A stretch of 35,461 bases of DNA from a virus (taxonomy: Duplodnaviria; Heunggongvirae; Uroviricota; Caudoviricetes), in the IMG/VR virus record IMGVR_UViG_2778261527_000008; one strand, given 5' to 3'. This document shows, in pieces, positions 575-34,023 of this stretch; the stretch's first letter is position 1, and the number at the start of each line of letters is the position of its first letter. The notes below the pieces were generated by a model, which saw only the letters and a program-made list of their open reading frames with translations, was not told where the DNA came from and searched no databases. The position numbers and the translations under genes are program-made.

Positions 575-1345
575 TTATTTGCACCCGTACTGGTCAACAT
601 AGATTTTAGAATATCCTTGTTTTTGTACTTCTAAGCGAATCATATCTTGATTATCACGCCACACATAATATTTTTTGTTATCCACTTGACCTTCATATTG
701 CATAGCACCATTCTGATGCGTCACGGTTTTTGTTTTTGCTTTATGTGCGTTATAATTATCACGATACACAAATTCAATAATTTCCCCGTCTTTTACTTTA
801 AGTTTAAGTTCACCAGAGTTATAACGAGGATAACTAGGGTCTTTAACTACTTTTGTTTCTACCCCGTCGTGGATTTCCCATTCATAGTGAACATCGCATT
901 GTAATTCCATATCGCCTGTAAATCCTTTTGGTTTCTCTTCAACCTTCGGTTCTTCTACCACTTTTTCTTCCTGTTTCGGTTGTTCTTCTTCAACCTTCGC
1001 AGAAGTCTCTGAAACGCTCCCTGACGCGGTTTCTTCTTTAGATAATACATTCATCAAGTTTTGGATTTGAGCGTTGTATACAGCCTCCAGTGGCTGAATC
1101 TGCCCGATATTGATCATTGTATCACGAACAGTTTTATTCCAGTTGCGTTGCTCTTGTTTAAGCGACGGGTCAATCTTAACAGCCTTAACATATACTTCAT
1201 GAAGTTTAGAATCCAGTGCGGAGATTGACTCATTAGAACAAATAAACTTCTCTGATTTGGTAGTAGCTTTAGCGCAATCAAAGGACGCAGCATTAGCACC
1301 GAAAGCAGTAGCAGAAAGCACGATAGCAGCGATAATGTTTTTCAT
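575..1345 (-). CDS. secreted protein with DUF1311/LprI-like N-terminal domain, Glu/Lys-rich linker and C-terminal beta-rich domain (moron candidate)
   Basis: 256-aa ORF; signal peptide MKNIIAAIVLSATAFGANA; FDCAKATTKSEKFICSNESISALDSKLHEVY resembles the DUF1311 signature; RBS AAGAGG upstream of ATG. Confidence 0.45.
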   Translation of the reverse strand: MKNIIAAIVLSATAFGANAASFDCAKATTKSEKFICSNESISALDSKLHEVYVKAVKIDPSLKQEQRNWNKTVRDTMINIGQIQPLEAVYNAQIQNLMNVLSKEETASGSVSETSAKVEEEQPKQEEKVVEEPKVEEKPKGFTGDMELQCDVHYEWEIHDGVETKVVKDPSYPRYNSGELKLKVKDGEIIEFVYRDNYNAHKAKTKTVTHQNGAMQYEGQVDNKKYYVWRDNQDMIRLEVQKQGYSKIYVDQYGCK

Positions 1346-1703
1346 TTTATACCTCTTTTGGTATGGACTGACTTTTAGATGCTTACTTTATTGATTTTTG
1401 ATATTTTTTCAATTATTGGGATGAGATTTAGTAATTAAATTAAGAAATTAATGCTTGACAAATTAAAAAGGTACTGTTCCACGGATGAAATAAAGGGAGT
1501 TTTCGGCACCCCGGTATTTGATACGCGTGTGAGATTTTAAAACGTGATCAGTGCAGTCCTAGCGCGGTCGCTACGCGACTATTAACCCACTTCCTAGCCC
1601 TTACCATTACTGGATCTTTCCCTTCGTTAGAATGCGATTTAGGCGCTTAGATTGTGCGTAAAACCAATAAATAAAATTACGCAAATTTAATGGAGGATAA
1701 CCA

Positions 1704-4532: not shown

Positions 4533-4874
4533 CTTATATCCTCCTAAATCTGGAATAATGATTTCTTAAAAAAGAGCTTTTCGCTCTGAACAATTCTATT
4601 TATAAAATGTTTTTCGAAAAACCCTGTAAAACCACTGTATATCCGATCAGTGGGAGCACGAATTGCTAAAGAGAAGATTAATAATTAATCAATTCGTACA
4701 TTATTCAATCGAATAAGCACTGTATGTTTAGCCAGTTCTGTATGAATTAACAGTGAGTCAGGGGATTTTCAGAAGTGAACAATCATTTCATGCATGTATT
4801 TATACACGAAAAAATCTTGCGTATCATCAATATGGGGATTGTTTCGAAAATTTCAACCCCTACCAACGAGAAAA

Positions 4875-4903
4875 AGCATAAAATAATCCTTGACAGTTGT
4901 CAA
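4875..4903 (-). promoter_or_regulatory. candidate sigma70 promoter reading leftward, embedded in palindrome TTGACA-gt-TGTCAA
   Basis: on minus strand -35 TTGACA (4903..4898), 17-nt spacer, -10 TATGCT (4880..4875); the palindrome could also be an operator. Confidence 0.3.
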
Positions 4904-5100
4904 TACACTTGATCTAAGCGAGAGATGACTATCAAAATTTTTGTGTGAAAATGGCGGATAACGATTATCAACCTTTATAACCTATTATAGCACGGCGACC
5001 TTTTGATAATTCTTTTTAAATCATGCATTTACGGCGATTTTTGGTGATTTTCTGGTTAAATAATATACAAGAATTTTCTATCAAAATTTTTGATGAAAAA

Positions 5101-5220
5101 CCTACACTACAAACCTACGCTTTAAAGGGATTGGCCTACACTACACTAGCCAGTAAACCTACACTATAACACCCTCAAACCTACACTATGAAACCTACAC
5201 ACCTACACTAACCCTACACT
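5101..5220. repeat. iteron-like direct repeat array, core CCTACACT (6 perfect + 2 variant copies)
   Basis: copies at 5101, 5114(var), 5135, 5158, 5180, 5194(var), 5202, 5213; three successive spacings of 21-23 bp; often preceded by AAA. Confidence 0.6.
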
Positions 5221-5408
5221 TCAATCTCATAAGTGTATGATATTGAAAGACATTTCACCCCACAGACCATAGAATATAAAATTCGAACTAACGTTCTCCT
5301 TTTTGCTCGTTTTCTCTCACTACGTTCAAGAAAGATCTCGCAAAAAGAATACGGCGTAGCCGTGCGCGAAGCGCCCATCAACACCTTCTAAGACCTGCAA
5401 GCAGGATT

Positions 5409-5561
5409 CGAAAGGGATTGGATAGTTCGCTTCGCTCACGTTCACGCCTACGGCGTTCACTCGCTTTTGAAAGGATTTTCTTAGAAAGGGATTTAATACT
5501 AGTTACTAACTGATTCTAGTAAACGAACGAAGTGAGTAACAATCACTTTCTAGAAAGGTAT
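5409..5561. repeat. second direct-repeat family GAAAGG(G)ATT (4 copies)
   Basis: copies at 5409, 5468, 5483, 5552 inside a GC-richer structured segment. Confidence 0.4.
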
Positions 5562-5799
5562 TGGTTATCCCTTCGGGATTGCAACCTTCGGTTGCTAAAT
5601 TGCTTCCTGATTATTATTTCTCCAAAAGAAAGATTCTTATATTCTAAAGATACTTCTTCGTTTTGATGATGATTTAATCAAACCATGAAGGAGGGCTTTA
5701 GCCCGACTGAATACAATCACCTTTCATAATAACAAGAATTTTCTCTTTATAAATAATAGTGAACTTACTTGATTCACTTTCTTTTAGAGGATTTCCACT

Positions 5800-8474: not shown

Positions 8475-10382
8475 ATGAAACTGATTTCTAATAAGGCAAA
8501 ATTAAAAAAGATTCTCAGAAATGCAGCCAAATATATTACGCCACCGCCTAAACTCCTTCCATCGGAATGGTGCGAAGCGAATCTAACGCTAGTCGATGGT
8601 CCTCGTGCTGGGGATAAAGTTAAATTGCTGTCATTTCAGAAAGGCATGATTGATGCTCCTTTCCTTGAGAAGAAAAAGAAGTACGTTTTTTGTACGAGTG
8701 CGCAGATCGGAAAGACGACCATCATGTCAGGGATCATGTTTAACCAGATGGCAAACGATCCGTGTAATATCATTATCGGGCAAAGTACCGCTAAAGAAGT
8801 GGCTATGTACTTGAATACTAAGATCCGTCCTTCTATTGAAGCATGTCCGGCATTACAGGAAGTGGTAACAGATAAGAATGATCGTAATGCGGTAAACAAC
8901 AATAACCAGATTCAGCTAAAAACAAACCATTTCCTTTACATGGTTTCTTTGACCAGTCCTTCAAGTTTGCGCGGGCGTACTGCCAAGTTAGGGATTGTAG
9001 ACGAATGCGACGCAGCAACAATCACCGAAGAAGGTTGCCCGGTGGCACTAACTGCAAACCGTTTAACTACCTTTGGTGATGAAGCTCGATTGATTGTTTC
9101 TAGTACCCCGACCAATAAGCTGGGAATCATTAACCAGCAATGGTTATCAAGTGATATGCGTATGTTTTTTGTTCCGTGTCCTCATTGCGGGGAACACCAG
9201 GTGATCGAGTGGGAAAACGTTCAATTTGAATGGCGTAACATTGATGGTAAGAACTTACCCGATCCTGATACCGCTCGTTATATTTGCCCCCACTGTAAGA
9301 ACGCATGGACAGAAGGGGAACGAATCAGGGCAGTAGCGCAAGGCGAGTGGAGAGCAACCCGTGAAAGTGAAGTAGCAGGATTCTGGATCAGTCGTCTGTA
9401 TTCACCTTTCAGCACGATCCGCGCTTGTGTGGTTGATTTTAGTCATGCGTGGCAATCCTTTGATTTACAATCCTTTTTTAACACCGTGTTAGGCAAGGTA
9501 TACGACGATCAGGACACGGCAGTAGAAGCAAATGAACTGGAACAACTCAAAACAGATGTTTCTATCGAGAATATCCCTGATGACGTGATTTTCTTGTGTG
9601 CGGGTACTGACCAGCAATTAGATCGCGCAGAAACTACGATCATGGGCGTGGCAAAGGATAAGATTTATATTCTGGATCACCGCAGCTTTTACGATCATAA
9701 CTGTGAACGATATGAATCACCTGTATGGGATAGATTAATCAACTTCCATAAAACCAAATTTACTACTGTATCGGGTGATCGTGTTCCTATGCTCGCCAGC
9801 TTCCTTGATACATCGAACGGTCGATTCACTCAAGCTGGATACCGTATTTGCGGCAAGTGGAAGAACTTACACGCTATCAAAGGTAGTTCTGCTGGTAACG
9901 CTCCGATCATTCCGGTTAAACCTACCCGCACAGGTGGTCATGAATTGCTTATGCTGGGCGTTAACGTTGGGAAATCCGCTGTTCGTGAAATGCTGGTTAG
10001 AAACCTGAAAGATAATCCTCATATTGGCTTAGAAATATCAGAAACCATTCCTGATGATTATCTCGATCAGCTTTTGAGTGAATCCATCAAGCGTACTACT
10101 ACTGGCGTGCGTTGGGTGAAAAATCCAGGTAGTACCCGAAACGAGGCTCTCGACTGTCTGGTTTATAGCTATGCTGCTTCTCGCTACGTTCTTTCAAAAA
10201 TGTCATGGGATAAACTCATTGCAATGAAAGACAGCTTAAACCGTGTTGTCGAAGAATCCGTAGAAGCTCCTAAATCGCAATCTGACGAGCAAATCGAAGA
10301 AAATAAGCCAATCACACGACCACAACGTAAAAACATCGCCAGACGCCCAAATAGAGGCCGTAGCTGGGTAACATCGTTCTAA
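8475..10382 (+). CDS. terminase large subunit, lambda GpA family
   Basis: 635 aa, size and motifs (zinc-finger-like CPHCG...CPHC segment) consistent with GpA-type terminases; GAGGG RBS. Confidence 0.8.
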
Positions 10383-14714: not shown

Positions 14715-15005
14715 ATGTTCAAATTATCAGAATCACAATTAAATCGAATGTTTAAAAGTGCTCCTGTATTTTCGGTGGAAGGTGGTAAATCAATTCGTGC
14801 TTATCATGAAATTACTACTACCGACGAATCGGGGGTAATGACAGAAACAGAATTTCTATTCTGTCGTGAGGGAGACTTAAAGCAAGGTGATATTGTCACA
14901 GTAGAAAACCAGCGTTTCAAAGTTCAATACGTTAAGCGCAATGGTGACAATACTTGTGATTGCTTTATCACTTTAGCAGGGGGTACACATGCTCGCTACC
15001 GTTAA
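14715..15005 (+). CDS. head-tail adaptor / head completion protein (candidate)
   Basis: 96-aa ORF directly after capsid gene, AGGGGG RBS; synteny only. Confidence 0.4.
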   Translation: MFKLSESQLNRMFKSAPVFSVEGGKSIRAYHEITTTDESGVMTETEFLFCREGDLKQGDIVTVENQRFKVQYVKRNGDNTCDCFITLAGGTHARYR

Positions 15006-15411
15006 TAATATGCCGAGACTGAAAATCAAACGCGCCTTGCAAGATATTATCGAACAAGATTTAGGTCTGGCTTTAAACGTAGAACAAACTCAGCAAGGCT
15101 TTAGTGATGACGTGGTTTGTTGGATTACTGGCATGAATGAGACTTACACAAGGGTCCGTGGCGGTAATGCAATGCAAGCTGAATGCGTTATCGAAATGCA
15201 GTTATATTCTCAGATTCATGAAACGAAAATTCATGAGGGTATTTGCCAGATAATCCAGATTCAGCCAGATAACCCACGATTTAAAGATTTGGGCTTCTCT
15301 ATTTCAGATATCACTCCAGTAGCTTCTAATACCGATTATGACGATGATTCTAGTGATGGGGGTATCGTTGGGACACTTAGCCTTAAATTTTCTTATCTAG
15401 CGCGTTTTTAA
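14989..15411 (+). CDS. head-tail joining or tail completion protein (candidate)
   Basis: 140-aa ORF overlapping previous stop by 17 nt; synteny only. Confidence 0.35.
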   Translation: MLATVNNMPRLKIKRALQDIIEQDLGLALNVEQTQQGFSDDVVCWITGMNETYTRVRGGNAMQAECVIEMQLYSQIHETKIHEGICQIIQIQPDNPRFKDLGFSISDITPVASNTDYDDDSSDGGIVGTLSLKFSYLARF

Positions 15412-32280: not shown

Positions 32281-33960
32281 TTAAATTCCAAATTCTTGTA
32301 ATGGACCTGGTATTTCTTCTTCTGGTTTCCAGTTCTTATCTGTCAGCATGTCTAAACATGGATGCAGAACAAGCCCGTTACTCTCCAGAATCTGCCTATC
32401 ATTGATAGTCTTCAAATCAACGAAGATCCGGCCTTTCCTCGGTCCTCTTGAATTTTCTATTACAACTCTCTGGGTCTTGCCATCGATGTATTCCAGTACA
32501 AACAAGTTTTTGTACTTGTCAATCCTGCTACACCCGATCCGTTTTAGAGCTTGCTTAATCTTAAACCGGACCTTAATGCGATCCTCGTTGTAAACATCTT
32601 CTAAATCAAATTCTGCGAGCTTCTCCCAGCCTTGAGAGTCAACAGAATACATTTCCTCTTCTGCCATCTTAAGTTGATTGTAGAGTGTTTCACGCTCGCT
32701 ATTGAGGGTAGTAATCTGATCGGCTAGCTCCTTCGTTGCTCCTGTCATAGCAGAAAGGGTAATCAGGTTATCAATCTTGCGTGATATTTCATCAATCTGT
32801 ACTTTCAAAGCCGGAACCGGATTAGCCTTATCTTCAGCAATCCAGATTTTATCAGCCAGCAATTGCAATACAGCTTTCTCTAATTGGTCGCCGCGAAAAC
32901 TCCAGTTTGTATGCACACATTCAATACGACTAGAGCGCATTGCATCGCATGAATAACGATATTGGTTAGGCCGTCTGTTTGTTCCTTTCACCTTAACCAT
33001 AGCGGAACCGCAATGTTCACATTTCAATAGACCAACACCACTAAGCAAGGGAATAGGTTTAGCTTCTTCTTTGTCTCCAAAGTTACATGCTCTAACACCA
33101 ATGCTTTTCTTAAGGTGATAAAACTCAGCGTCATCTAGCACACGAGGATAATAATCCTTTAACTCATACTTAACGCCATCTACAGAGATTTCCTTGATAC
33201 CAATCAAAGCGCGGGTATGGAACAACCTTTCAATCATTGCCCGTGACCAGTTTGAATGCCTCTTGTGACTTGCGGCTGGTGGTGGTGTGTATGTCGCGTT
33301 AAGGTGATCCAGTATCTCGGCGGTTGACCGTCCATTCCTGCGTAATTCCACAACTTCCTGAACAATAGGGAAGAAGACCGGATGAGGAAGCACATAACCA
33401 GATGTGGTATCAGTCCACCACATATTCTTTCCAATTTCCTCGATTGCAACAGCCGGATTTTGTGGATTTTCTTGATGAGCTTTAATCTTAATCAGTGCGC
33501 TTGAGTTAGTACGATTGCGCTTAGTCTGGCTTTCCTCATTACCACGGATGAATAAAAGGATGGAGAACATCAGGTCCATCGGGTTAGCGGTAACAGTATC
33601 AAGCGAGTAGATCTTGTTATCCATGCCAGTAACAATGGTTATCCCCCTACGGATGATTGAAAGGAATAACTCCTGCGCACTGACAATATCGGCACGGGAT
33701 AAACGGTCCAAGTTTTCGATGAATAGCCAGCTACCAACAGGAACGGATCTACCTATTGCATCAAGGAAACGAGATAGCGCCCCTGTTTTGGAGTTAGCAC
33801 CCTTAAACGCAGATACACCCAGATCCTGATAATCATTTACCAGTTCAAGGTCATACTTTACCGCAATCTCTCTAGCCATCCTGATTTGTCGTTCATAACT
33901 CGAACCATCATTCTGACGCATAGACGAGAAGCGAATATACGAATACAGTTTAGTTTTCAT
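32281..33960 (-). CDS. large serine recombinase (integrase/resolvase family)
   Basis: 559 aa from ATG at 33960; N-terminal resolvase catalytic motif YIRFSS..Q; Cys-rich zinc ribbon CEHCG...C..C; coiled-coil segment. Confidence 0.8.
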   Translation of the reverse strand: MKTKLYSYIRFSSMRQNDGSSYERQIRMAREIAVKYDLELVNDYQDLGVSAFKGANSKTGALSRFLDAIGRSVPVGSWLFIENLDRLSRADIVSAQELFLSIIRRGITIVTGMDNKIYSLDTVTANPMDLMFSILLFIRGNEESQTKRNRTNSSALIKIKAHQENPQNPAVAIEEIGKNMWWTDTTSGYVLPHPVFFPIVQEVVELRRNGRSTAEILDHLNATYTPPPAASHKRHSNWSRAMIERLFHTRALIGIKEISVDGVKYELKDYYPRVLDDAEFYHLKKSIGVRACNFGDKEEAKPIPLLSGVGLLKCEHCGSAMVKVKGTNRRPNQYRYSCDAMRSSRIECVHTNWSFRGDQLEKAVLQLLADKIWIAEDKANPVPALKVQIDEISRKIDNLITLSAMTGATKELADQITTLNSERETLYNQLKMAEEEMYSVDSQGWEKLAEFDLEDVYNEDRIKVRFKIKQALKRIGCSRIDKYKNLFVLEYIDGKTQRVVIENSRGPRKGRIFVDLKTINDRQILESNGLVLHPCLDMLTDKNWKPEEEIPGPLQEFGI

Positions 33961-34023
33961 ACCATTTCCAAACAAAAACGCCCCTACCGCGTATTATAAC
34001 GATAGGGGCCAGGTGATTAAAGA

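Follow-up and report, generated by a model that had tools for sequence, protein, structure and literature searches.

A candidate cos-type packaging region upstream of a Nu1-like terS in a temperate siphophage family inserted in hicB

The window, that is, the whole stretch of 35,461 nucleotides of IMG/VR record IMGVR_UViG_2778261527_000008, contains a prophage of a temperate siphophage of about 35.1 kb inserted in hicB. The 5' part of this E. coli gene (1-333) forms the left flank of the prophage, and the attL crossover core, AAACCTAAA (325-333, inside hicB), marks the prophage left edge. This 9-mer is common to attL and attR in strain MEI003, in which the 3' hicB remnant is located directly after the sequence matching the window end, and hicB is also split in the annotated genomes of related prophages. 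Between att and the region upstream of terS there is a cargo gene of the LprI family (575-1345, minus strand; Pfam LprI, phrog_14799), which is variable: other lineages show other genes, or nothing, at this position. The cargo gene is followed by a gap of 358 bp (1346-1703), located between the minus-strand LprI gene and a plus-strand ORF of 184 aa (terS, 1704-2258). The gap had been described as gene-free in a preliminary description of this DNA and is indeed ORF-free; in related RefSeq prophages, no CDS is annotated in the corresponding gap. Downstream of terS are small ORFs, then a 333-aa gene and a 60-aa gene (both on the minus strand), an ORF-free stretch of 1.27 kb (4533-5799), a Rha-like gene and a 201-aa minus-strand gene, which precedes terL (8475-10382, plus strand). 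Portal, protease-capsid fusion, tail and lysis genes are found downstream of terL, and a serine integrase is encoded on the minus strand at 32281-33975.

The product of the ORF at 1704-2258 belongs to phrog_57, a terminase small subunit family, over nearly its full length (E = 1.5e-11, PHROGs), and shows no match in Pfam. Residues 4-75 of the TerS family profile match, among the PDB structures, 6hn7_B, a lambda-type TerS (E = 4.9e-4), and 1j9i, the DNA-binding domain of gpNu1 (E = 1.4e-3). The AlphaFold2 model (mean pLDDT 73) predicts helices at residues 7-13 and 21-27, a short strand at 38-40, a long helix at 41-89 and more helices up to residue 153, followed by a disordered acidic C-terminal tail; residues 7-40 would form a helix-turn-helix (HTH) plus wing. 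Foldseek gave no significant match with this model, the weak ones including winged-HTH proteins such as MerR, BldC, RacA and Xis. A homologue of Pluralibacter gergoviae (L077), about 30% identical, matches phrog_57 with E = 9e-27, and its gene overlaps the start of a gene encoding a gpA-type TerL. The ORF is accepted on these similarities as terS, encoding a Nu1-like small terminase; its earlier description as a terS-like gene of GpA/Nu1 type is borne out by phrog_57, by the gpNu1 profile matches, by the homologue adjoining a gpA-type TerL and by the TerL of the window, which has both GpA domains (Pfam GpA_ATPase, 1.9e-55; GpA_nuclease, 2.7e-44).

A point absent from the preliminary description is that terL is not adjacent to terS but lies 6.2 kb downstream. 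This separation, occupied by replication and regulatory genes, is kept in the E. coli, Salmonella and Proteus relatives, whereas more distant relatives (Pluralibacter) show the usual overlapping terS-terL in the canonical Nu1-A order. TerL exists in two alleles of about 57% identity, which are found in prophages that differ little otherwise (the window, L003, L065 and L054). The boundary of this mosaic is at about residue 15: the first 14 residues or so, and the promoter-like 86 bp upstream, are constant within E. coli, and Salmonella has its own version of the first TerL residues, paired with its own TerS C-terminus. This pairing fits a contact of the TerS tail with the TerL N-terminus, plain phylogeny being the alternative explanation.

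The upstream regions of 20 IMG/VR relatives were aligned. Lineages with different upstream genes are alignable from CTTGACA (1454-1460) through to terS, and this defines a conserved non-coding module of about 250 bp (1452-1703, plus strand), which always accompanies terS and does so in E. coli, Salmonella, Proteus and metagenomic relatives. The module shows two conserved islands. Island 1 (1469-1509, plus strand) is bipartite, consisting of AGGTACT (1469-1475), about 20 variable bases and GGGAGTTTTCGGCAC (1495-1509). A nhmmer profile for island 1, built from the close family only, found matches upstream of terS in distant relatives with adjacent terS and terL (L088, E = 2e-5; L086, E = 3e-4; L087, E = 0.012), and weaker, correctly placed matches in L076 and DCP80. 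Island 1 is thus conserved better than the neighbouring gene, since the TerS of these distant relatives is only about 30% identical. In L076, a 186-aa minus-strand gene lies between the island-1 motif and terS (2269-2998 of that locus), so that island 1 is separable from terS. No consensus RNA or secondary structure was found for island 1. We favour island 1 as the candidate nick region of the terminase (cosN-like); alternatively, it may be a late promoter element.

Part of the module must be transcriptional, because the genes to the left of terS are on the other strand and terS needs its own promoter. A TTGACA at 1455-1460 is conserved in E. coli, Salmonella, L057, L078 and L081, and an inverted repeat, TGCGTAA-N14-TTACGCA (1656-1683), a possible operator, is located just upstream of the terS ribosome-binding site in both of the site types defined below. 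Both elements are candidates for the transcriptional role; no full sigma-70 promoter was found in a scan of the plus strand.

Island 2 is an invariant 16-mer, GCGGTCGCTACGCGAC (1564-1579), which contains the palindrome GTCGC-TAC-GCGAC noticed earlier. Read directly, the palindrome (1567-1579) is GTCGCTACGCGAC, two arms of 5 bp around a spacer of 3 nt, and a second dyad, TAGCG-CGGT-CGCTA (1560-1573), overlaps it. Its description as a GC-rich palindrome in an AT-rich context is accurate: the gap is 36% G+C and reaches its maximum, 75%, in the 20-nt window from 1558. Palindromes with 5-bp arms and a spacer of 0-6 nt are common in the gap (7 observed, 3.3 in shuffles) and a palindrome with G+C-rich arms appears in about 3% of gap shuffles (P about 0.03), and by itself the palindrome is thus suggestive at most. 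Its single-strand hairpin is not unusually stable (z = -0.57). An RNA or DNA hairpin, a terminator or a known RNA was considered and rejected: there is no Rfam match, the hairpin is unstable and island 1 lacks a consensus structure. An ACGCGT palindrome, also reported earlier at about 1524, is present at 1523-1528, but it is not conserved, many relatives showing GTGCGT, and was judged irrelevant.

Among 32 distinct palindrome-bearing upstream sequences of E. coli and Salmonella, no invariant run is longer than the 16-mer, both flanks of which are variable. In Salmonella and in locus L057, 15-16 nt of it are intact despite diverged flanks, with a TerS 57-70% identical to that of the window. Comparison of these sequences thus excludes a chance origin of the palindrome, given that the 16-mer is unchanged from genus to genus. 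A search of the window that allowed three mismatches found no second copy of it, and in this it is unlike a set of repressor operators.

The relatives show two types of site. Type A contains the palindrome. In type B, represented by E. coli ETEC4085 and by several further loci, the segment of about 1535-1650 is replaced by an unrelated, also G+C-rich, palindrome-free sequence (GGTTTAGTTAAGCCCTCCAGCACACTCCACAACGAGC), and Proteus carries a relative of the type-B sequence. Island 1 is common to both types. Type A goes with the TerS helix N(G)(G/A)(A/G)K(R/K)W, and type B (e.g., CCAGCACACTCCACAACGAGC) goes with the helix (P/Q)AV(T/Q/N)KW; site type and helix type are concordant in 33 of 33 distinct TerS N-termini, in which the two elements are 130-290 bp apart and which represent few independent lineages. 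The variable residues are located on the predicted helix 21-27, which aligns with the second helix of the gpNu1 HTH. In contrast, the DNA-binding domain and the coiled-coil segment that follows (KQTS.KEQID or REVD.QAQIQ) are found in all four combinations, so that recombination happens right beside the DNA-binding domain. This co-variation argues for a functional coupling of the palindrome to the TerS DNA-binding domain, with plain linkage as the alternative. The TerL alleles do not follow the site type: TerL-1 occurs with type A in the window, and TerL-2 with type A in MEI003 but with type B in ETEC4085. Since alleles only 57% identical share one site, the nuclease would read little or no allele-specific sequence there.

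In phages lambda and 21, cosQ and cosN are identical, while cosB and the TerS recognition helices are different, and in N15 only one TerS site, that at the R3 position, is critical, a 'simple cosB' (PMC4669245). As in lambda and 21, the module combines a shared element with a specific one to which the TerS helix is matched, and 1452-1703 is read on this basis as a cos-type region. The likeness to lambda includes the gpA ATPase and nuclease domains of TerL, the alignment of the TerS winged HTH with gpNu1, a modular build in which a common element is joined by a specificity element, and the position of the site directly upstream of terS: the palindrome centre is 131 bp from the start codon, and the lambda left end is 190 bp from nu1. 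A difference is in gene order, since terS and terL are overlapping in lambda and 6.2 kb apart here, with a replication and regulation module in between. As in the comparison of 21 with lambda, two alternative sequences occupy one position beside a shared element and match two TerS helices, and the TerS C-terminus and the first 14 or so TerL residues do not vary within a host genus, in contrast to the remainder of TerL, which is exchanged; the specificity is proposed here from co-variation, in difference to 21 and lambda. N15 is resembled in the one unique candidate TerS site, which is located to the right of the candidate nick region, at a distance of tens of bp, and has no second copy within three mismatches. 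The site is, however, a short dyad of two 5-bp arms, and no accessory rR2-like copy was found inside terS.

Direct similarity to the lambda cos sequence was also searched for. The lambda 12-nt cohesive end, GGGCGGCGACCT, has 11 matches with up to three mismatches (10.7 expected), none of them in the gap. The 'lambda-like' phages of Feiss et al. have 12-base 5' ends similar to those of lambda (PMC4669245), and no sequence of this kind is seen at the site. When the family profile was run with nhmmer against the lambda genome, the cos junction ranked 16 (E = 41). A resemblance by eye of island 1 to the lambda cosN flanks (AGGTTAC ... GGGTTTTCGC) is not supported by the nhmmer scan, which does not single out cos, and is not used as evidence. 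A complex cosB, with three R repeats, one of them inverted, and an IHF site between R3 and R2, is not apparent either: a repeat search of 1300-1750 gave only short pairs at chance level, and no IHF consensus was seen in the region by eye. The region is most likely a Nu1/gpA-type packaging site of known kind, with an unusual but conserved terS/terL split.

Our best reading is that 1452-1703 is a cos-type packaging region whose palindrome is the TerS-specific element (cosB/R3-like), rather than a proven cut site, and we give it a probability of about one half. The preliminary description had placed a candidate cos region upstream of terS, and that part stands in the form of a conserved cis module inherited with terS; the palindrome that it had pointed out switches with the TerS recognition helix and so behaves as a TerS binding site (cosB) and not necessarily as cosN, and the universal element is island 1. 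Several points weigh against the cos reading: no searched contig shows an end that demands a cut in the module, part of the module must be transcriptional, the site is not similar to the lambda cos, TerL alleles only 57% identical use the same site, and the centres of the two half-sites of the palindrome are separated by 8 bp, a tight fit for a pair of winged-helix domains. Cohesive-end packaging is inferred from the terminase family, and binding, nicking and packaging direction are proposed by analogy. By analogy with lambda, a dimer or oligomer of the Nu1-like TerS would read the region through its N-terminal winged HTH, with the 16-mer as the specificity element, in the role of cosB or of the one R3-type site in N15. 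The acidic C-terminal tail of TerS would recruit the gpA-type TerL encoded 6.2 kb away, whose nuclease would make staggered nicks nearby, the best candidate being island 1, about 70-100 bp to the left of the palindrome, and the palindrome itself the alternative. Packaging would then proceed rightwards, with the terS end first.

Contigs from IMG/VR, JGI metagenomes, ENA, NCBI assemblies and Logan were searched for DNA ends, and none showed an end that demands a cut in the module: they run through the region, or break at or next to the prophage left end (att junction), or break inside the iterons of the 1.27-kb stretch. Two short metagenomic contigs start at 1468 and 1471; these starts are equally explained by a branch of the assembly graph, because exact identity between variants begins at the same place. 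Two other contigs, L049 and L114, were rejected as cos ends since they start at or next to the att junction instead, and the contig breaks in 4533-5799 were rejected as physical ends, as they fall inside iteron arrays and the iterons co-vary with an initiator-like protein. A lambda-like 9-mer, CGGCGACCT, at 4992-5000 in the 1.27-kb stretch was also discarded: the segment is not conserved among relatives with a near-identical terS and cos region, and matches to the lambda end are at chance level. The surrounding 12 bases, GCACGGCGACCT (4990-5001), in this non-conserved segment, agree with the lambda cohesive end at 10 of 12 positions, nine of them contiguous. A cos immediately upstream of terL is unlikely, given that the 86 bp there are A+T-rich and promoter-like, contain no G+C island and are the same whichever TerL allele follows. 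The 4533-5799 stretch is likewise a less likely place for cos, being a variable module of iterons and an initiator. Among isolated phages with known ends, none could be related through TerS or TerL, the sole match being part of the chimeric-looking record DCP80.

The alternative that deserves most weight, although we consider it rather unlikely, is that the module mainly controls the transcription of terS, through an activator-dependent promoter with TTGACA as its -35 element and operators, the palindrome being one of these (for TerS autoregulation or another regulator) and cos or pac lying elsewhere. The absence of a co-directional gene upstream of terS, which needs its own promoter, the TTGACA conserved in E. 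coli, Salmonella, L057, L078 and L081, the second inverted repeat at the terS ribosome-binding site and a winged-HTH fold common to Nu1-like proteins and to regulators of the MerR and Xis types (the weak Foldseek matches) all agree with such a role. The plus strand shows no sigma-70-like promoter, however, and island 1 is kept where terS trails a co-directional gene at about 190 bp, a position in which its own promoter is unneeded. The 16-mer is found only once in the window, and no other conserved non-coding segment of the family resembles a packaging site.

That the palindrome itself is cosN, with symmetric TerL nicks that give G+C-rich cohesive ends and with the TerS sites further right (1580-1700), appears improbable. 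Cohesive ends are typically G+C-rich, and the palindrome is the G+C maximum of the gap, dyad-symmetric, invariant and unique, with an unrelated but G+C-rich island at its position in the type-B relatives. Its exchange nevertheless goes along with that of the TerS DNA-binding helix, although one allele, TerL-2, is used with both types of site, and the element conserved across all relatives is island 1 and not the palindrome. In lambda and 21 it is cosB, and not cosN, that co-varies with TerS (PMC4669245). Still less probable, to the point that we give it little weight, is headful packaging from a pac site without defined cohesive ends, or a palindrome that is a chance feature, as might be supposed from the contig searches that showed no ends and from the marginally non-random palindrome taken alone. 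The TerL with both gpA domains speaks against headful packaging, and to our knowledge the characterised phages with a TerL of the gpA family are cos packagers; the invariance of the 16-mer across genera speaks against chance.

The reading of 1452-1703 as a cos-type region can be extended, tentatively and with rather more doubt than confidence, to an arrangement of three freely exchangeable cassettes: a universal nick element, a single palindromic address site together with the TerS DNA-binding domain, and the TerS tail together with the TerL N-terminus, with cos-terS uncoupled from terL by the 6.2-kb replication module and placed beside attP, at the outermost part of the prophage. If this is true, the family would be a natural system in which cos and terS need neither co-transcription nor adjacency with terL, and in which packaging specificity is swapped independently of a nuclease 57% identical between alleles. 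If the region is cos, the family would also add to lambda and 21 a second natural case of joint change in a TerS helix and its DNA site, and the split terS/terL layout would be a convenient system to study how much sequence a gpA-type nuclease reads.

The distance from the palindrome centre to the attL core (attL/attR core, 325-333) is 1.24 kb, in agreement with the 1.2 kb given earlier for the candidate site and att, and is explained by the LprI cargo gene in between. The preliminary description regarded this closeness as an unusual arrangement, a view that does not hold, since closeness is the family norm: in variants without the cargo gene, the prophage left end is only about 0.1-0.25 kb from the module. 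One metagenomic contig fuses the integrase region directly to terS, as is expected for the excised form. With cos at this position, attP would be at the extreme right end of the virion chromosome, as a family-wide trait and not an anomaly of the window.

The structural genes of the prophage are present in 61 of 5426 complete E. coli genomes, and the module (1452-1703) is found on the same scale, in 60 of the 5426, always in the chromosome; no copies of the module or site were found in the plasmids searched, and none on satellites. The module of E. coli CE0007a (NZ_CP119011) and that of HCP5S3_I4 (NZ_CM149869) are 99.6% identical to the window, and that of MEI003 is 96.9% identical. Related prophages are also present in Salmonella, Proteus and metagenomes, and the phage is carried in public sequencing runs such as SRR31546711, SRR31546763 and those of ERZ1034969. 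The phage collection contains no close isolated phage: the best TerL match, 43% identical, is the record DCP80, and the TerL of the other collection phages is about 31% identical or less. In DCP80 (GenBank PQ671644, 'Escherichia phage DCP80'; L002/L084), the first 26.3 kb or so are siphophage-like, with terL, head, tail and lysis genes and a terS-like gene, and the sequence after them contains T4-like genes, including two inverted copies of rIIA; the record looks like a chimeric assembly. Its siphophage block stops right after the terS-like gene. A literature search on the 14-mer or on hicB-integrating prophages found nothing useful. If the region is cos, it would determine where the virion chromosome ends, and which packaging specificity applies, in a temperate family not characterised before; about 1% of complete E. 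coli genomes carry this family, which has no sequenced virion relative except part of one chimeric-looking record. Knowledge of such a cos would help to define genome coordinates, to predict mobilisable satellites or cosmids and to interpret transduction.

The ORF-free stretch at 4533-5799 is conserved in position in all relatives. It shows seven copies of a CCTACAC iteron, mostly at 5100-5215, and the iteron type co-varies with the adjacent minus-strand protein of about 320 aa, relatives with an unrelated protein carrying TTTGCCCC iterons. From its sequence, this stretch looks like a replication module made up of an initiator and iterons. Short-read contigs often break inside it. Its right part (5461-5799), which is conserved, shows, near 5569-5596 and 5694-5705, adjacent tetraloop hairpins with compensatory changes between the E. 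coli and Salmonella relatives (ATCCCTTCGGGAT vs ATCCGCTTCGCGGA; GCAACCTTCGGTTGC vs GGATGCTACGCATCC and GGACACTGCGTGTCC). These hairpins have no Rfam match and, judging from the compared sequences, could belong to a small RNA or serve as a signal for single-strand priming at the origin. ARAGORN called a tRNA-Glu of 91 nt at 15176-15266 (minus strand), inside the ORF 14989-15411 of the head-tail region, and its length and location suggest a false positive. At the left edge of the prophage (1-351 of the window), the hicB antitoxin gene is truncated after about residue 111 and extended by five phage-derived codons (CCKPQ) and a stop codon, and in related genomes the hicA gene upstream of hicB is intact.
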